A DNA stretch of 32,000 nucleotides from Candidatus Saccharimonadota bacterium (GTDB lineage Bacteria; Bacillota_I; Bacilli_A; Mycoplasmatales; Hepatoplasmataceae), in contig NZ_CP006932.1 of the NCBI RefSeq assembly GCF_000582535.1, forward strand, positions 600,001-632,000, given 5' to 3'. The translations under genes were made by a program, and so were the position numbers. A model generated the notes under the pieces. It saw nothing but the letters and a program-made list of their open reading frames with translations, searched no databases and had not been told where the DNA came from. The stretch's first letter is position 1, and each line of letters starts with the position of its first letter. Below are positions 67 through 29,668 of the stretch, piece after piece.

Positions 67-143
<77 letters not shown>

Positions 144-152
144 ATAAATAAA

Positions 153-245
153 TGGTGGAGATGGAGGGATTCGAACCCCCGCACGACTTTCGCCGTCTCT
201 CGGTTTTCAAGACCGACCCCTTCAACCAGACTTGGGTACATCTCC
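153..245 (-). tRNA. tRNA-Ser (TGA), class II with long variable arm
   Basis: 93 nt. Reverse complement GGAGATGTACCCAAGTCTGGTTGAAGGGGTCGGTCTTGAAAACCGAGAGACGGCGAAAGTCGTGCGGGGGTTCGAATCCCTCCATCTCCACCA. Anticodon loop CTTGAAA. Confidence 0.9.
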
Positions 246-254
246 ATTTATAAT

Positions 255-331
255 TGGTGGTCCGTGCTGGACTTGAACCAGCGACCAACCGGTTATGAGC
301 CGGTGGCTCTAACCAACTGAGCTAACGGACC
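255..331 (-). tRNA. tRNA-Ile2 (CAT, presumably lysidine-modified)
   Basis: Reverse complement GGTCCGTTAGCTCAGTTGGTTAGAGCCACCGGCTCATAACCGGTTGGTCGCTGGTTCAAGTCCAGCACGGACCACCA. From memory it resembles the Bacillus-type tRNA-Ile(CAU). It also occupies the Ile slot of the conserved Arg-Pro-Ala-Met-Ile-Ser-fMet-Asp order. Ile versus Met identity cannot be proven from sequence alone. Confidence 0.7.
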
Positions 332-336
332 TTATT

Positions 337-413
337 TGGTAGCGGAAGAGGGACTTGAACCCCCGACCCATTGAATATGAACCAATTGCTCTAACCAACT
401 GAGCTATTCCGCC
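337..413 (-). tRNA. elongator tRNA-Met (CAT)
   Basis: Reverse complement GGCGGAATAGCTCAGTTGGTTAGAGCAATTGGTTCATATTCAATGGGTCGGGGGTTCAAGTCCCTCTTCCGCTACCA. The GGCGG...GGTTCATA...GGTCGGGGGTTC...CCGCTACCA framework matches Firmicute elongator tRNA-Met. Confidence 0.75.
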
Positions 414-420
414 AATAATA

Positions 421-496
421 TGGTGGAGCGAACGAGACTCGAACTCGCGACCCCATGCGTGCAAGGCATGTGCTCTACCAACTGAGCTATCACCCC
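421..496 (-). tRNA. tRNA-Ala (TGC)
   Basis: Reverse complement GGGGTGATAGCTCAGTTGGTAGAGCACATGCCTTGCACGCATGGGGTCGCGAGTTCGAGTCTCGTTCGCTCCACCA. G3:U70 identity pair is present. Anticodon loop CTTGCAC. Confidence 0.92.
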
Positions 497-501
497 ATAA
501 A

Positions 502-578
502 TGGTCGGAAAGACAAGACTTGAACTTGCGACCCCCGCGTCCCAAACGCGGTGCTCTGCCAAACTGAGCTACTTTCCG
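502..578 (-). tRNA. tRNA-Pro (TGG)
   Basis: Reverse complement CGGAAAGTAGCTCAGTTTGGCAGAGCACCGCGTTTGGGACGCGGGGGTCGCAAGTTCAAGTCTTGTCTTTCCGACCA. Anticodon loop TTTGGGA. Confidence 0.9.
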
Positions 579-582
579 ATAA

Positions 583-659
583 TGGCGCGCCCGATAGGAG
601 TCGAACCCACAACCCTCTGATCCGTAGTCAGATACTCTATCCAGTTGAGCTACAGGCGC
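583..659 (-). tRNA. tRNA-Arg (ACG)
   Basis: Reverse complement GCGCCTGTAGCTCAACTGGATAGAGTATCTGACTACGGATCAGAGGGTTGTGGGTTCGACTCCTATCGGGCGCGCCA. Anticodon stem TCTGA/TCAGA with loop CTACGGA. Confidence 0.9.
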
Positions 660-667
660 ATTATTAA

Positions 668-752
668 TGGTGCGGGTGAAGGGACTTGAACCCTTACGTC
701 CGAAGACACTAGATCCTAAGTCTAGCGTGTCTGCCTATTCCACCACACCCGC
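668..752 (-). tRNA. tRNA-Leu (TAG), class II
   Basis: 85 nt. Reverse complement GCGGGTGTGGTGGAATAGGCAGACACGCTAGACTTAGGATCTAGTGTCTTCGGACGTAAGGGTTCAAGTCCCTTCACCCGCACCA. Anticodon loop CTTAGGA. Long variable arm. Confidence 0.9.
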
Positions 753-755
753 ACA

Positions 756-831
756 TGGTGCCGTTGATAGGAATCGAACCTACGACCCACTGATTACAAG
801 TCAGTTGCTCTGCCTGCTGAGCTACAACGGC
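756..831 (-). tRNA. tRNA-Thr (TGT)
   Basis: Reverse complement GCCGTTGTAGCTCAGCAGGCAGAGCAACTGACTTGTAATCAGTGGGTCGTAGGTTCGATTCCTATCAACGGCACCA. Anticodon stem ACTGA/TCAGT with loop CTTGTAA. Confidence 0.9.
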
Positions 832-841
832 TGATGATCTT

Positions 842-917
842 TGGTGGGGCATATAGGACTTGAACCTATGACCTCCTGCTTGTAAGGCAGATGCTCTCCC
901 AACTGAGCTAATACCCC
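842..917 (-). tRNA. tRNA-Val (TAC)
   Basis: Reverse complement GGGGTATTAGCTCAGTTGGGAGAGCATCTGCCTTACAAGCAGGAGGTCATAGGTTCAAGTCCTATATGCCCCACCA. Anticodon loop CTTACAA. Confidence 0.9.
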
Positions 918-924
918 GAAAAAA

Positions 925-1000
925 TGGTGACCCATACGGGATTTGAACCCGTGCATGCTAGGATGAAAACCTAGTGTGTTAACCGCTTCACCAATGGGCC
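925..1000 (-). tRNA. tRNA-Glu (TTC)
   Basis: Reverse complement GGCCCATTGGTGAAGCGGTTAACACACTAGGTTTTCATCCTAGCATGCACGGGTTCAAATCCCGTATGGGTCACCA. Anticodon stem CTAGG/CCTAG with loop TTTTCAT. Confidence 0.9.
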
Positions 1001-1003
1001 TAA

Positions 1004-1078
1004 TGGCGCTCCGGAGAGGATTCGAACCTCCGACCAACTGGTTAACAGCCAGCTGCTCTACCACTGAGCTACCAGAGC
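1004..1078 (-). tRNA. tRNA-Asn (GTT), first gene of the operon
   Basis: Reverse complement GCTCTGGTAGCTCAGTGGTAGAGCAGCTGGCTGTTAACCAGTTGGTCGGAGGTTCGAATCCTCTCCGGAGCGCCA. Anticodon loop CTGTTAA. Confidence 0.9.
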
Positions 1079-8303: not shown

Positions 8304-8912
8304 ATGGAGTATAAAAGAATAAAATTACCGTTCAAGTATGATTACTTAGAACCTTATATGGATAAACGAACAGTACAATTACATTATGAAAATCATCATG
8401 GTGGTTATGAAAGAAATCTTTTAACAAAAATCAAAGATGTTGGTTTTGAAAGAAGATATCCTACACTAGAAGATTTAATGCGTAATTATCAAAAAATTGA
8501 TAATCCAGAAATAAGAATTGCCGTTCGTGAATTTGGTGGTGGTTTAATAAATCATAATTTTTTATGAACTATTTTAAAACCTAAGGTTCAATTAAAAGAT
8601 GGAAATTTAAAAAACGCAATTGAAAAAGAATGAGGAAGTTTTGATAAATTTAAAGATGAATTTACAAGAGAAGTAAAAAATCTTTTTGGATCAGGATGAG
8701 TTTGATTAGTAAAAAGAAAAAATGGTTCTTTAAAAATCATTAAAACTTTTAATCAAGATAATCCTTGATTTTTAAAATTTACACCAATCATGGCGATTGA
8801 TCTTTGAGAACATTCTTATTATTTAAAATATAATAGTGATCGAATGGGATATCTTGATAATTATTGAAATACAATAAATTGAGATCAAGCAGAAGAATAT
8901 TACAATTCTTAA
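8304..8912 (+). CDS. sodA: Fe/Mn superoxide dismutase (202 aa)
   Basis: Fragment 8304..8567 continues through 7 TGA codons to TAA 8910-8912. SOD signatures: LPFKYDYLEPYMD, LHYENHHGGY, GGGLINHNFLW, AIDLWEHSYYLKY. The Trp of DLWEH is TGA at 8805-8807. Confidence 0.9.
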
Positions 8913-8950: not shown

Positions 8951-9014
8951 TATCTAAATAGTGAAAATATTTATTTATTTTAAAATATATAATTTTTTTA
9001 TGGAAAGAGATAAA

Positions 9015-9692
9015 ATGAAAATATATATGTACATTGATGAATCTGGAGTTTTACATAAAAATGACTATTATAATATTTTTTTATTCGGAGGAATATGTTT
9101 TATAAATGAAAATTTAAGAAATAAATGTAAATGGGAATATGGAAAAAGAGAATTAGAAATAAAAAATAAATATCCAAATAATAAAGAATTAAAAGGAAAT
9201 ACTTTAAAAAATAAACATAAAAAATATCTTTATAGTATATTAAATGGAGAGAAAACTTTTATTGGAAAAGTTAATATAAATAAATTAAAAGAAATTGATT
9301 GACAAAGAAAAAAATCAATTCAAAAATATAAAGATTGATTTTTAATGATGTTAATTAAAGAACAAGTAAATAATTTAATTATAAAAAAAGAAATAAATGT
9401 AAATGAAAAAAATATTTTTCACATTTTTGTTGATAATCAAAATATTTCAATAGATGAAAAAAATAATTTAACAAAAAAAATTAATCAAGAATTTTTTAAA
9501 GGAAAATATAATAATAAAAAAGAATTTATCAAACCAATTTTTAATCAATTCGGAAAAATAAAAGTAAAATATGTTAATTCTGAAACTAATGAATTAATAA
9601 GAGCTGCTGATATATTATGTAATAATAAATTTAATAAAATCAAGGAAGAAAAATCGATTGAAGGAAAACACGTAATTTTTTCTCACCCCTAA
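9015..9692 (+). CDS. DUF3800-like protein (225 aa; alternative starts ATG 9000 or GTG 8961)
   Basis: Fragments 8961..9302 and 9345..9692 are one frame joined by TGA codons (9300-9302 and a second in KDWF). N-terminus MKIYMYIDESGVL matches the DUF3800 YIDESG signature. C-terminal NELIRAADILCN matches its conserved xxADxxx motif. GGAAAGAG lies just upstream of ATG 9015. Assignment is from motif memory only. Confidence 0.65.
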
Positions 9693-21003: not shown

Positions 21004-22074
21004 TTAAATTTCTCTAGTATATTTATCAGCTAGATTATCAATTCCTTTTATATATTCAACTTCTATTTTTATGTTATTTTCATCAATTAAAGAAAAGGCT
21101 TTTTTCATATAATCTTTTGCTTTTGTTTTACTATTTATTTTTCTTGTTTTTATTCAGGAAATAATGGTTTTATTATCATCATAAAAAAATGCTTTTAATA
21201 TTTTGTTTTTTAATAAATATTTAATAAATTCTAAAAAAGCAAATGCTTCTATTTCATTTGATCATTCACAATCAGGATTTTCACTTCTATATAATAATTT
21301 TCCTTTATTATCAACTATAGCAATTAATCCGACATTATTTTTATTAGAAGAAATAGCACCATCGATATAAAAAATTTTTTGTTTAATTTTATTATTATTT
21401 AAATCTTTCTTTTTATTTTTTAATAAATTATCTAATTCTATAAAATAAGAAAATGTTGTAATTTTTTCAAATAAATCTATAAATTCTTCTTCTGAAATTA
21501 ATTTATTACCTTTATGTCTAATTTCCCCATTATTATTTAATTTAATAAAAACATCATTAACAATTTTTTTACCAAAAAAAGATTTCAATTTTTCTCTATT
21601 TTCTCTTCCATCTAAAAAGGAATAAAAAAGACCTAATTTTTTACATTTTATTTTAAAATCATTTTCTTCTAAAATTTGATAAATTAATTTATTTATATCT
21701 TCTATTATTGTAAATTTTTTCTTATTTTCATTTAAAAATGATTCTATTAAATTGATTATTTTTTTTGCACTATTTTCAAGATTTTTATTGTTTAATCTCT
21801 TTGTTGAAAAAATATGTTTTTTAATTTTTTTTAAAAGATCAATTGTACTTTCAAAATCTAATTCTTCAAAAATTCTTTCTAGCTTTTTGATATTTGATAA
21901 TTTGTCAAAACTTTTATCATTATTTGAATCAATTGCTTTATTTTTAAATTCTTTAATAAAATTATTAAACTTTAATTTATCTGAATATATTAAAGTTGTT
22001 ACTCCGTTGTTTTCCTTATCGATTAATAATTTTAATATTTCAACTATTAAATTATCCAATTCATATTTTTCCAT
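21004..22074 (-). CDS. protein with unknown N-terminal domain (about 230 aa) and C-terminal RNase H-like domain (356 aa)
   Basis: Fragment 21262..22074 continues through TGA to TAA 21004-21006, checked codon by codon. The C-terminal part reads IFYIDGAISS...VGLIAIV...WSNEIEAFAFLEF...AFFYDDNKTIISWI...KGIDNLADKY. That gives a D/E/D/D spacing like type-1 RNase H. Confidence 0.6.
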
Positions 22075-24454: not shown

Positions 24455-24462
24455 AATAAAAT

Positions 24463-24490
24463 AATTATAAAATAAATTTATTTTATAATT
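24463..24490. repeat. 28-bp perfect A/T palindrome between the RCC1-gene stop and the pyrG start
   Basis: AATTATAAAATAAA|TTTATTTTATAATT. The halves are exact reverse complements. Confidence 0.8.
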
Positions 24491-24498
24491 AGTAATTC

Positions 24499-27132
24499 TT
24501 AATTTTGGAAATCATTTATTTTATTTTCATTTTCAATAATTTTTTCTTTTAATTTTAAATTTATTCAAAATAAAATTGTTGTAATTAAAATAAAAGCTAT
24601 TAAAAAACCAACAATAAAAAATAATATTCAAAAATTTCGATCTTGTTTTTTTGTATTAACATTTCCATTTTCTGAAATATCTAAAGATTGATCAAAATTT
24701 TTAGTAAAACTTAGATTTTCAAAATTATAATTTTTATTACTTTCTAAATTCTCTATTTCAAAAAAAAATTTATATTTTTCCGTTCCTCTTTCAGTTCCAC
24801 TAGAAATATGAACAGAACTTTTTAAAACATAAGTAGAACTATAAATATTACCTTCTGAATCTTTTAAATATAGATTTTCATTTAAATTAAAATTTAAAAA
24901 AATTGGTTCTCTATTTTGTTCGTCGGAGTAAATTAAATTATCAATAGTAATTTCATATATTAATAAATTAGTTGTAATTGATGTTTCATTTATTACAAAA
25001 CTATTTTTAACAAATTGTTTATTTACAGATAATGTCTTAATTTCAAGAGAATTAGATAAAGTAATTATTTCAGAATTAGGATCATTAGGATCATTAAGTG
25101 AAATTTTAGAAAATACATATTGAGTGTTAGTATCTAAATTATTTTGTAAAAATTCTAGTTGATAATTCTGTGTTCCATTAATTACACCATTTGAGATAAC
25201 ATTTAAAGTAACAAAAGAGGAATTATATATATTCTCGTTTTGATCAATTAATCAAATTCCATTATTTACATCATATTGCGTGAAATTTGTTTCATTTTCA
25301 TTTGGTTTCAAATTATCAATTTCAATATTAAATTCAAATGATGTTGTGGTAATTGAATTTTCTATAATAAAAATAGAATTTTCTTTAATTATTGGTGTTG
25401 TTTTTTCTGTTTGAAAATACATAGGATCTTGATCAATGGTATATTTATATTCACCATTTTCATAAAAATATTGAATTGAATCAATTTGATAATTTGTTTC
25501 TGAATTTAAATCTGTTAGTGTAATTTCATAGGAATCATCAATTACAAATTCTTGCGAATTATAAATATTTTGATCTAAATCAGTATAATTTACTTTAATT
25601 TTTCGTTCAGAAGAAGTGTAATCTAATAAATTAAATTCTTCACCATTTTGACTAAAATCTAATAAAATTGTTACATCTTCTTGATTTGGATCTAAAATTT
25701 GATAATTGGAAATTAAGTAATCAGAATCAGAAGAAGGAAATATTGAAAATATTGAACTAAATTCCTTTAAATTGGAATTATCATAATAATTTGTTAATTG
25801 ATAATTAGAATTATCACCACAACCATATAAAATATCACTTTCTCCATCATTATTTAAATCAGCTAATAAATAACTATTTTTAGAACCAAAATAAAAATCT
25901 TTTAATTTAAAATTATTAGTATTAAAAATTAATTGAGGAAAATAAATTCCATTTTCATTTAAATTATAATTCCCAAGTTGACCATATTTATTTGATCCTC
26001 AAATATAAAGACTATCTGCATATTGATCATTATTTTGATCAATTAGCACACCCGAATTATATAAACTAATTGATAAATCAATTATATTTCCGTTTCAATT
26101 ATCTTGTCCTTGTGGTGTTATTTTTTGTGGAAATAAAGAATTATTTGTTGTTCCATTTCCCAGTTGGCCATTACTATTATCTCCTCATATATAAATATTA
26201 TCACCATAATTATCAGAATCTATATCATCTATAATAATTGAAATATTATTTGCACTTGCTTCTAAATCAATTATATTTCCGTTTCAATTATCTTGTCCTT
26301 GTGGTGTTATTTTTTGTGGAAATAAAGAATTATTTGTTGTTCCATTTCCAAGTTGGCCATTACTATTATCTCCTCAAGTATAAATGGTATCACCATAATT
26401 ATCTTGATCAGTATCTATTAAAACAGAAGAAAAATATTCCCCTAAGGCAATATCAACAATATTTCCTCCTCAATTATTTTTTTCTTTTGGAGTTACTTTT
26501 GTTGGAATAGATATAGTTCCTCCTATTGTTCCATTTCCAATTTGGCCTTTGCTATTATCTCCTCATATATATAATGTATCAGCATACCCATCATTATTAG
26601 TATCAACAGAAATTGCTGTATTAGTATATGATAAATCTAAATCAATAATCTCTCCTTTTTTATTATTTTTAGAAGAATAAGAAATTACAGGAAATAAAAT
26701 ATTATTTTCACTATCATTTATTTGATTTGAATTATTATCTCCTCACACATATAATGTATCTCCATAATTATCATTATCGGTATCAACTAAAACAGACGAA
26801 TTATATCCGTCAAGCGATAAATCAACAATATTTCCATTTCAATCTTCTTGATTTTTTGGAGTTATCAAAATAGGTTTTGCGATATTTACATTTTCAGAAC
26901 CATTTCCAATTTGACCATATTGATTATCTCCTCACATATAAAGAGTATCTGCATAATTATCATTATCGGTATCAATAATAATTCCAGAATGATAATATCC
27001 TGCATCACCACTTATAATGTTATTTTGATCATAAAAATCAGAATTAATATTTTTATTGTTAAAGTTTATTTTAAAAATGCTTAAATTTAGAAACAAAAAA
27101 GGAAGCATCAAAAAAGCTACAAATTTTCTCAT
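24499..27132 (-). CDS. predicted surface-anchored RCC1-repeat beta-propeller protein (877 aa)
   Basis: The entire frame was translated codon by codon with no TAA/TAG and 13 TGA=Trp. Signal-peptide-like MRKFVAFLMLPFLFLNLSIF. Seven RCC1-type repeats: YMWGDNQYGQIGNG, YVWGDNNSNQI, YIWGDNSKGQIGNG, YTWGDNSNGQLGNG, YIWGDNSNGQLGNG, YIWGSNKYGQLGN, LYGCGDNSNYQL. Three C-terminal modules of about 110 aa each. TM helix FWILFFIVGFLIAFILITTILFW. Stop TAA 24499-24501. Confidence 0.85.
26074..26376. repeat. near-identical tandem duplication (period 189 bp = one 63-aa RCC1 blade) inside the RCC1 gene
   Basis: 26074-26187 and 26263-26376 are identical over 114 bp, except C/A at 26161 versus 26350. A further shared TCACCATAATTATC follows after a short divergent patch. 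Confidence 0.9.
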
Positions 27133-27185: not shown

Positions 27186-27263
27186 ATTTTAATATATTAT
27201 AAAATTTAATAAATCCCTTACAAGATTATTATATTAAAATTTAAAAAAATAGATAATATTTAA

Positions 27264-28756
<1,493 letters not shown>

Positions 28757-28760
<4 letters not shown>

Positions 28761-29668
28761 TTAAACTCTAAATTTGTATCAATTAATTTAACTTTGCTGA
28801 AATCAATTTTATTTAAATTTGCAGATTTTAATTTTACTGATTTAAATTCTGCTCCTTCTAAATTTGCTTTTGCAAGATTTGCATAACTAAGATCAACATT
28901 TTCTAGTCTTGCATTTTTAAAATTCACATAAGCAAGATTTGTATAAGATAAATTAATATTTTTAAGATTAGCTTCACTAAAATCAACAAATTTTAAGTTT
29001 GATTTATTAAAATTAATATCTTTAAGGTTGGATTTAATAAAACTTGAATAAACTAAATTAGAAGATGATAAATTTACATCATTTAGTCTTGCTTCATTAA
29101 ATAAAGATTTTTTAAGATTGCAATGATCTAAGGAAACTTTATCTAAAATAGATTTATTAAAATTAGAATTAAGTAATCCTAAATAATTTATTTTTACTTC
29201 TTTAAAATTTGCTTTTGTAAAATTAACTTTTACAAAATTTTCATTTAAAAAACTAAATAAAAATTTTTTATTATTTATTTCTACATTATTAAATTTTGCA
29301 TCAGTAAAATTAACTTTTGTTAATCTTACTTTTTTTAAGTTTACATCAGTAAGACTTGATTTATTAAATTTTGCATCAGTAAAATTAACTTTTACAAAAT
29401 TTGTTTTTATCAAATTTGTATTAATAAAATTAGAATCATTAAGATTTGATTTTAAAAAATTTGCTTCTTTTATATTTGAATCTTCCAAATTTGCTTCTTT
29501 TAAATTTGTTTTTTTAAAAATTGAAAAATCTAAATTTGCTCTACTTAAATTAATTTTGTTCAAATTAGATTTTAAAAAAACTGAACCTTGTAAATTCTTT
29601 TCAGAAAAATTTACTCCTGTTAAATTTTTTTTCTTTAATTCTGTTTTATTAATATTATTATTATCCAT
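28757..29668 (-). CDS. pentapeptide-repeat protein (303 aa, essentially all repeat)
   Basis: Intact ORF with no TGA. About 57 consecutive A(D/N)(L/F)xx pentads, for example NLTGV NFSEK NLQGS VFLKS NLNKI NLSRA NLDFS. AAGGA lies 6 nt upstream of the ATG. The start is 11 nt downstream of the helicase stop. Confidence 0.9.

Follow-up and report, generated by a model that had tools for sequence, protein, structure and literature searches.

What does an RCC1-like propeller do in a wall-less symbiont of the isopod gut? The question is raised by an 877-residue protein of Candidatus Hepatoplasma crinochetorum Av, encoded in a stretch of 32,000 nucleotides (contig NZ_CP006932.1, positions 600,001 to 632,000; hereafter the window). 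Through in silico analysis of the gene, its paralogs and the predicted structures, it appears rather probable that the product is an exported type-I membrane protein, in which a propeller serves as the ligand-binding head on a fibronectin type III (FnIII)-like stalk. Hepatoplasmas are uncultured, and their genome of about 650 kb offers few candidates for proteins in contact with the host, the RCC1 family being one of them. For this reason a concrete architecture of head, stalk, anchor and seven putative Ca2+ sites should be of help to those working on the symbiosis.

Gene, genetic code and identity

24499..27132, minus strand: complete gene, 877 codons followed by TAA in genetic code 4, with 13 TGA codons read as tryptophan

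In the table 4 translation the 877-codon frame is unbroken and contains 13 in-frame TGA codons and no TGG; TGA also encodes the conserved tryptophan of the WG motif. Translated with table 11, the same region falls into pieces of at most 90 residues. The long open reading frames of the window (at least 200 residues) are open only when TGA is read as tryptophan (91 TGA versus 5 TGG), and the G+C content of the window is 22%.

The protein is 100% identical across all 877 residues to AHK22682.1 / WP_025208968.1 of Candidatus Hepatoplasma crinochetorum Av, and AHK22682.1 is already labelled “RCC1 repeat protein” in the genome of that strain. Its counterpart in the Tokyo2021 metagenome-assembled genome (MAG), BDV03256.1 (HCTKY_5500, P0001 in the present alignments), differs at 12 residues (98.6% identity). 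The two loci are syntenic, with 99.6% identity along 17.5 kb, and share the gene order metS, RCC1 gene, pyrG, a choline-kinase-like gene and, further along, mnmG and an ABC transporter. Intact copies of equal length are found in three sources, namely strain Av, Tokyo2021 and an ENA metagenome contig.

The propeller head

25726..27039, minus strand: seven-bladed RCC1-like beta-propeller, residues 32-469, blades of 60-67 residues; assigned from Pfam, blade segmentation, AlphaFold2 (AF2) and Foldseek

Three Pfam profiles match the protein: PF25390 (RCC1-like domain) with 171.9 bits (cutoff 150), PF00415 with 146.8 bits (cutoff 21.7) and PF13540 with 67.9 bits (cutoff 22). An NCBIfam scan of the protein returned nothing informative. 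The seven blade anchors are located at residues 54, 117, 177, 240, 303, 365 and 425, and a motif resembling W-G-x-N-x-x-G-Q-[LI]-G is present in six of the seven blades, the seventh carrying a degenerate form (GCGDNSNYQLT).

A full-length AF2 model was built on the ortholog P0001, with an alignment of 19 family members. The mean predicted local distance difference test score (pLDDT) is 83.9, and 27 strands with a four-strand periodicity are placed between residues 38 and 439; the expected 28th propeller strand falls within a low-confidence linker (residues 449-469). A Foldseek comparison of the predicted propeller with the PDB gives UVR8, the RCC1-like domain (RLD) of RPGR, RLD1-3 of HERC2, RCC1, RCC2 and WBSCR16 (E 3e-23 to 1e-15), with target-normalised TM-scores of 0.80-0.89 for the UVR8, RPGR and HERC2 domains.

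Predicted export signal, stalk and membrane anchor

27067..27132, minus strand: N-terminal signal or hydrophobic segment, residues 1-22, MRK followed by FVAFLMLPFLFLNLSIF; without a lipobox cysteine
25399..25725, minus strand: stalk module 1, predicted beta-sandwich, residues 470-578; present in 19 of 20 aligned sequences, the most widely shared post-propeller module
25027..25398, minus strand: stalk module 2, FnIII-like, homologous to module 3, residues 579-702
24655..25026, minus strand: stalk module 3, FnIII-like, residues 703-826
24562..24633, minus strand: predicted C-terminal transmembrane (TM) helix FWILFFIVGFLIAFILITTILFWI, residues 834-857; from hydropathy and an AF2 helix at 833-875
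24502..24561, minus strand: short tail rich in lysine and glutamate, predicted cytoplasmic, residues 858-877 (20 residues)

Only two hydrophobic segments occur in the protein, residues 4-22 directly following MRK and residues 834-857. The N-termini of all 20 paralogs are built in the same manner, with a start containing lysine or arginine and then a hydrophobic stretch. Such an arrangement, short and basic at first and then hydrophobic, is the standard form of a Sec signal, which would place the bulk of the protein outside and its last 20 residues inside. In 11 of 13 other TM-bearing members, 4-8 lysine or arginine residues lie within the 15 residues after the helix, as against 0-1 before it, and this bias agrees with the positive-inside rule and hence with an outward topology. 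FnIII modules, too, are as a rule extracellular, as are Dx[DN]xDG motifs (PMC3123361). Taken together, an outward-facing arrangement is the best-supported reading of these sequence features. The sole cysteine of the protein is residue 438, and therefore no lipobox is present. A lipoprotein was also considered and was rejected, since the signal does not end in a cysteine.

The stalk (residues 466-832) was modelled separately with eight paralogs, which resulted in a pLDDT of 93.2 and a predicted TM-score (pTM) of 0.83. The Foldseek matches of this model are three-domain FnIII fragments of sDscam, Tie2, fibronectin 10-12, PTPRD and titin (E 2e-8 to 1e-5, probability 1.00). Modules 2 and 3 show clear homology in hhalign (probability 99.7%, E 6e-27), and no sequence relationship of module 1 to either of them was detectable by the same comparison. 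No Pfam family matches residues 471-832 at E <= 0.1, and so there is no fn3 match; in the paralog P0010, fn3 was obtained at E 0.04, below threshold. When 1.84 billion representative proteins were searched with a profile of the stalk, only 18 reached E <= 1e-3, and the stalk is, as judged by profile, lineage-restricted.

The first-pass annotation of this DNA, made without database searches, had already outlined much of the layout. Its frame, its length of 877 residues and its statement that every tryptophan is encoded by TGA agree with the table 4 translation (877 residues and TAA, 13 TGA, no TGG). The seven consecutive RCC1 repeats that it described are borne out by blade segmentation, with the WG motif clear in six blades and degenerate in the seventh, and by the HMMER comparison that it had proposed, in which all three Pfam profiles exceed their gathering scores. 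Its seven-bladed propeller with a beta-sandwich stalk is reproduced in the predicted structure, where the three tandem Fn3/Ig-like modules adopt predicted FnIII beta-sandwich folds even though no Pfam fn3 match exists. It was right, too, about the absence of a lipobox (sole cysteine at residue 438) and about a single C-terminal TM helix with a short Lys/Glu tail, placed by it at 24565-24633 and here at 24562-24633, with a tail of 20 residues.

Acidic hairpins of the blades

26947..26973, minus strand: blade 1 acidic hairpin DTDNDNYAD, calcium-blade-like
26758..26784, minus strand: blade 2 acidic hairpin DTDNDNYGD
26578..26604, minus strand: blade 3 acidic hairpin DTNNDGYAD, strict Dx[DN]xDG-xx-D
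26389..26415, minus strand: blade 4 acidic hairpin DTDQDNYGD
26200..26226, minus strand: blade 5 acidic hairpin DIDSDNYGD
26014..26040, minus strand: blade 6 acidic hairpin DQNNDQYAD
25834..25860, minus strand: blade 7 acidic hairpin DLNNDGESD, strict Dx[DN]xDG-xx-D

All seven blades contain a hairpin of the form D-x-[DN]-x-D-x-x-x-D, directly preceding the L-Y-x-W-G strand. According to the AF2 secondary structure it is situated between two blade strands (strand 48-54, loop 55-62, strand 63-69, and similarly in every blade), and it constitutes an insertion of about six residues compared with HERC2 and UVR8. The consensus of the family hairpin is D-T-[DN]-x-D-G-Y-A-D; among 118 distinct family hairpins, position 3 is aspartate in 53% and asparagine in 42%, and position 6 is glycine in 71%, asparagine in 10% and glutamine in 8%. 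Position 9 is aspartate in each of the seven blades and in 99% of the family hairpins, with glutamate in the other 1%, bearing in mind that the extraction pattern required [DE] there. When the 20 family sequences are aligned, the aspartates at positions 1, 5 and 9 show little or no variation.

Most Hepatoplasma paralogs possess five to seven in-register hairpins, and one possesses two. A hairpin of equal length, with threonine at position 3, is found in a ‘Mycoplasmataceae bacterium’ protein (P0022). In 439 recognisable blades of 42 other bacterial RCC1 proteins, the strict motif was found in none and the relaxed motif in one.

The calcium blade described by Rigden et al. 2011 (PMC3123361) is a propeller-blade hairpin with the motif Dx[DN]xDG and an acidic ligand two residues on. 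It is known in integrin alpha, PilY1, a fungal lectin and rhamnogalacturonan lyase, and Dx[DN]xDG motifs occur mostly outside the cell (PMC3123361). By its residues the family consensus fits this definition, and the chances that the hairpins bind Ca2+, as predicted, are roughly even. The literature searched contains no paper combining ‘calcium blade’ with ‘RCC1’. A possible convergent calcium-blade insertion in RCC1 blades is the one point that might interest structural biologists.

Family and distribution

RCC1-like proteins of hepatoplasmas were described by Kawato et al. 2024 (Access Microbiol, PMC10928387), who counted seven for H. crinochetorum Tokyo2021 and ten for H. scabrum; Table S5 of that paper lists HCTKY_5500. 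A ColabFold model of the paralog HCTKY_2170 (991 residues) comprised an N-terminal seven-blade propeller and four Ig-like folds. The authors judged the resemblance to RCC1 to be at the level of the fold, not a recent transfer from eukaryotes, and suggested a possible role between host and symbiont (PMC10928387). Signal peptides, transmembrane segments and calcium are not mentioned there, and in the literature searched it is the only paper to discuss RCC1 in a Mollicute.

Two expectations of the first-pass annotation are therefore not upheld. It was not aware of a described protein of this kind; both gene and family had been annotated and published before, with the 100% match AHK22682.1 annotated as RCC1 and the ortholog HCTKY_5500 listed by Kawato et al. 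2024 (PMC10928387). It had also called bacterial RCC1-repeat proteins uncommon, whereas the propeller search gave 3,148 significant matches among 8,000 scored candidates, mostly bacterial. Since the gene and family are known and the class is common among bacteria, novelty cannot be claimed for the protein as such. Many of the bacterial matches are fused to Fn3, Big, PKD, T9SS-sorting, dockerin or InlB-B-repeat modules, which indicates that such proteins are extracellular. Bacterial RCC1 proteins are thus abundant exported modules and not rare effector-type oddities.

In Tokyo2021, ten family locus tags have been collected. HCTKY_2170, 2330, 2450, 2750, 2760 and 5500 come from both cluster look-ups and Table S5; HCTKY_0080, 0090 and 2010 come from cluster look-ups only and are absent from Table S5, and HCTKY_2180 comes from Table S5 only. 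The three unlisted proteins have 936, 927 and 973 residues, respectively, the first two being without a TM anchor. By sequence, then, the published list of seven appears to omit at least three clear family members.

Each genome carries at least ten paralogs with 33-51% identity, some of them in tandem, and a further RCC1 gene lies about 9 kb past the end of the window. Full-length relatives at this level of identity are limited to Hepatoplasma genomes and a few metagenome contigs; P0004 of H. scabrum is located at a different locus from the window gene. The C-terminal helix is present in 13 of the 20 aligned members. In the paralogs P0010, P0011 and P0012 it is followed by repetitive Lys/Glu-rich cytoplasmic tails of 170-240 residues, by which the surface protein might be connected with some structure inside the cell of this stalk-forming mollicute. 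One of these three is annotated as ‘ATPase involved in DNA repair’.

Two contigs with TGA read as tryptophan contain genes of similar construction, each with a signal, RCC1 repeats, a TM helix and a Lys-rich tail. L007:1-13842 (GCA_040777445.1, JBEVUG010568987.1; 27.8% GC) carries at least seven of them in a row, and L006:6001-10999 (GCA_040777365.1, JBEVUO010686523.1; 20.7% GC) carries two in tandem. Both belong to very fragmented assemblies and are probably symbiont DNA within host genome projects. With these arrays, membrane-anchored RCC1 families look recurrent in host-associated Mollicute-like bacteria with genetic code 4, and multigene families of TM-anchored RCC1 proteins may be common across host-associated Mollicutes.

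The points that Kawato et al. 2024 do not mention are the membrane-anchor topology, the hairpin in seven blades, the lineage-restricted stalk, and the hotspot of single-nucleotide polymorphisms (SNPs) with a gene-conversion tract that is described below. Current knowledge is not overturned by these findings; what remains of interest is the calcium-blade-like insertion, together with the TM-anchored RCC1 arrays as a pattern across Mollicutes.

Proposed function and its alternatives

Hepatoplasmas live on the brush border of the hepatopancreas and depend heavily on the host for nutrition (PMC10928387). The adhesin P110 of Mycoplasma genitalium combines a 7-blade propeller with a stalk domain and a TM helix (PMC6203739). 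An adhesin or receptor-binding role of the window protein is plausible, and would proceed as follows: (i) the N-terminal hydrophobic signal would direct Sec-dependent export; (ii) the single C-terminal helix would fix the protein to the cell membrane, with about 20 residues on the inner side; (iii) the rod of three FnIII-like beta-sandwich modules would hold the seven-bladed RCC1-like propeller off the membrane; (iv) the Dx[DN]xD[GN]xxD hairpin of each blade would bind Ca2+ and make the propeller more rigid within the lumen of the host's digestive gland; (v) the propeller would bind a ligand, most likely a component of the hepatopancreatic brush border, and the paralogs would provide alternative heads.

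The isopod gut is calcium-rich. It is possible, though we lean slightly to the doubtful side, that the seven hairpins are true Ca2+ sites which make the head a Ca2+-dependent adhesin tuned to this gut, and that TM-anchored RCC1 families are a general attachment device of arthropod-associated Mollicutes.

Several observations weigh against the proposed architecture or its function. With regard to calcium, glycine stands at position 6 in only two of the seven hairpins (blades 3 and 7), the other five having asparagine or glutamine. A 23-residue hairpin profile gave no significant match in the PDB, the best having E 0.63 and six of the ten weak matches being EF-hand loops; it found no integrin, PilY1 or lectin there, and no FG-GAP or VCBS match was obtained in Pfam at E <= 1. 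The profile result was rejected as evidence of homology to integrin calcium blades, and is retained as a weak indication at the level of the motif. With regard to topology, the flanks of the TM helix in the window protein are balanced, with three lysine or arginine residues on each side. No obvious small residues at -1/-3, or canonical signal-peptidase site, were seen by inspection of the N-terminal segment, which may therefore persist as a second anchor. Six of the 20 family members end before the TM helix, so that anchoring is not universal. Finally, several other binding roles fit the same architecture.

One of these is that the protein, displayed on the surface, binds soluble macromolecules of the lumen, either as an inhibitor or trap of host digestive enzymes or as a device for nutrient capture. 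BLIP-II is an RCC1-like propeller which inhibits beta-lactamases, and the RCC1 fold is a generic platform for protein binding, with enzyme inhibition cited among the functions of the superfamily (PMC10928387). The reliance of hepatoplasmas on host nutrition (PMC10928387) is in keeping with such a role, and the six members without a TM helix could be released. However, contact between a cell and a surface is the more usual role of a long, membrane-anchored stalk, similarity to BLIP-II is absent from the top 50 Foldseek matches, and the gene is flanked by pyrG and metS, with no linked transporter or protease genes. This role is accordingly considered unlikely, and attachment by the propeller head is preferred.

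A little less likely again is a variable surface coat or decoy, with no specific ligand, in which paralogs and intragenic recombination diversify the surface against immune effectors or phages. Multigene families of variable surface proteins are common in Mollicutes, and the number, divergence (33-51% identity) and partly tandem arrangement of the paralogs are in line with this explanation. So is the comparison of the window (strain Av) with the Tokyo2021 MAG over 17.5 kb, where the gene corresponds to L001:10001-12634. The two sequences differ at 69 positions without any indel, and 40 of these 69 SNPs are located in the RCC1 gene (binomial p = 3e-16). The density reaches 15.2 SNPs per kb in this gene, as compared with 0-8.3 in the other genes (metS 6.1, pyrG 4.3) and about 2 overall outside it, and it tapers through the flanking metS and pyrG. 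Recombination between blades is visible as well, within the following repeat:

26075..26586, minus strand: tandem DNA repeat with a 189-bp unit (2.7 copies, 81% match), spanning approximately blades 3-6

Inside it, a stretch of 38 residues is duplicated exactly (residues 253-290 and 316-353, in blades 4-5 and 5-6). At 26123-26204 (gene nucleotides 929-1010, blade 5) a gene-conversion tract was identified, in which the Av allele has the paralogous blade 4 base at five consecutive differences; this conversion from blade 4 to blade 5 would account for the exact repeat. Against diversification, 28 of the 40 SNPs are synonymous and dN/dS (the ratio of non-synonymous to synonymous rates) is 0.10, which indicates a functional gene under purifying selection; a local excess of mostly silent differences suggests an imported or anciently diverged allele and not positive selection. 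Moreover, strong conservation among paralogs marks both the acidic hairpins and the cores of the blades, and the 143-bp upstream region has no visible homopolymer or short-repeat switch.

The first-pass annotation had described the repeat signature as eukaryote-type and had named a host-factor mimic as the alternative to an adhesin, and an effector directed at a host small GTPase, as RCC1 is at Ran, would be the corresponding mechanism. The RCC1 profile matches are significant and the best structural matches are eukaryotic RLDs; the PDB holds almost only eukaryotic RLDs, so the ranking of structures says little. The nearest outside relatives by sequence are bacterial, and the first match from a eukaryote-only source (EukProt) ranks 42nd. 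Origin as a eukaryote-derived mimic was rejected on this ground, in agreement with Kawato et al. (PMC10928387). The protein is, in addition, membrane-anchored on an FnIII stalk and carries a lineage-specific blade insertion that is absent from eukaryotic RLDs. It belongs to an ectosymbiont for which no effector-delivering secretion system has been reported, and Kawato et al. (PMC10928387) likewise came to a negative view. Guanine-nucleotide exchange on Ran-type GTPases is not expected of an exported bacterial protein, and the effector explanation is very improbable.

Slightly weaker even than this is the explanation by a decaying gene or an artefact of reading TGA as tryptophan, since truncated or split paralogs (such as a 360-residue and 619-residue pair in H. 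scabrum) and forms of 658-667 residues without a TM helix do occur, but the present copy is intact and of the same length in three sources, has a dN/dS of 0.10 without indels (on which two grounds a pseudogene was rejected), and shares its TGA usage with the whole window, including the conserved tryptophan of the WG motif. The effector and pseudogene explanations are effectively excluded.

Expression signals and neighbouring genes

27196..27223, minus strand: candidate promoter, best sigma-70-like match TTGTAA-16-TATAAT (10/12), about 64 nucleotides upstream of the ATG

The 143-bp region between the RCC1 gene and the divergent metS holds the best -35/-10 match of the region. Scans for promoters and terminators performed no better than on shuffled sequence in this DNA of 22% GC, and the only terminator-like match lies inside the gene. 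As promoter-like sites are no commoner than in shuffled sequence, TTGTAA-16-TATAAT is regarded as a candidate only. Between the RCC1 stop codon and pyrG lies a spacer of 44 bp (24455-24498) that consists only of A and T, and in it a near-perfect palindrome (AATTATAAAATAAA/TTTATTTTATAATT) is visible by eye. A consensus scan of this spacer found no G+C-rich terminator, so read-through or co-transcription with pyrG is possible.

Elsewhere in the window, superoxide dismutase is unusual for Mollicutes, and an Fe/Mn superoxide dismutase gene is located at 8304-8912 on the plus strand (Sod_Fe_C 126.8 bits, Sod_Fe_N 54.3 bits in Pfam). At 28757-29668 (minus strand) a protein of 303 residues consists almost wholly of pentapeptide repeats (PF00805, 160.8 bits). 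The 3' end of its gene overlaps that of the convergent metS by 4 bp, and the precomputed annotation of the Tokyo2021 locus has no Pfam record for it. A cluster of 12 tRNA genes at 67-1078 (minus strand) includes three tRNA-Met (CAT), and owing to this cluster the 153-residue open reading frame at 42-500 on the plus strand is considered spurious. A DUF3800 protein (46.4 bits) is encoded at 9000-9692 on the plus strand. The C-terminal part of a 356-residue protein at 21004-22074 (minus strand) weakly matches RVT_3 / RNase H-like (22.8 bits, just over the cutoff).

Comparison with known systems

The closest solved structures are the eukaryotic RLDs of RCC1, UVR8, RPGR and HERC2, which share seven four-stranded blades with the predicted head (TM-score 0.80-0.89, identity 16-23%). 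In contrast to it, they are intracellular and lack the hairpin insertion, and their roles as Ran guanine-nucleotide exchange factor, UV-B sensor or scaffold cannot be carried over to a bacterial protein that is exported.

The calcium blades of integrin alpha (FG-GAP), PilY1, Psathyrella lectin and rhamnogalacturonan lyase have in common with the window protein the motif (in its strict form in two of the seven blades) with its acidic residue, the location in a hairpin, the repetition over successive blades and the extracellular setting, which in the window protein is predicted. Unlike the FG-GAP calcium blades, the Hepatoplasma blades are of the RCC1 type and have no profile relationship to them, position 6 is asparagine or glutamine in five of seven, and metal binding is putative.

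With the adhesins P110, P140, P1 and P40/P90 of Mycoplasma genitalium and M. pneumoniae the likeness is one of layout, that is a 7-blade head, a membrane-proximal stalk, a C-terminal TM helix and a cytoplasmic tail (PMC6203739). The P110 propeller is nearest to virginiamycin B lyase, and P110 has a sialic-acid-binding ‘crown’ and a novel C-domain that is not FnIII (PMC6203739). Adhesins of the P110/P140/P1 type are absent from the top 50 Foldseek PDB matches, and the resemblance is thus limited to the overall layout, with no detectable homology.

The bacterial extracellular RCC1 proteins of COG5184 (‘alpha-tubulin suppressor-like’) have the same type of blade, and are commonly exported and fused to Fn3, Ig-like, PKD, dockerin or T9SS modules. 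They differ in using other anchors and in lacking the acidic 9-residue hairpin (no strict motif in 439 blades). Compared with HCTKY_2170, the window paralog has three post-propeller modules in place of four, the module of about 100 residues that follows the propeller in the 962-991-residue paralogs being absent. In spite of this difference the protein belongs to the family of Kawato et al. (PMC10928387), in which its ortholog HCTKY_5500 is listed and with which it shares the propeller and the Ig-like folds.

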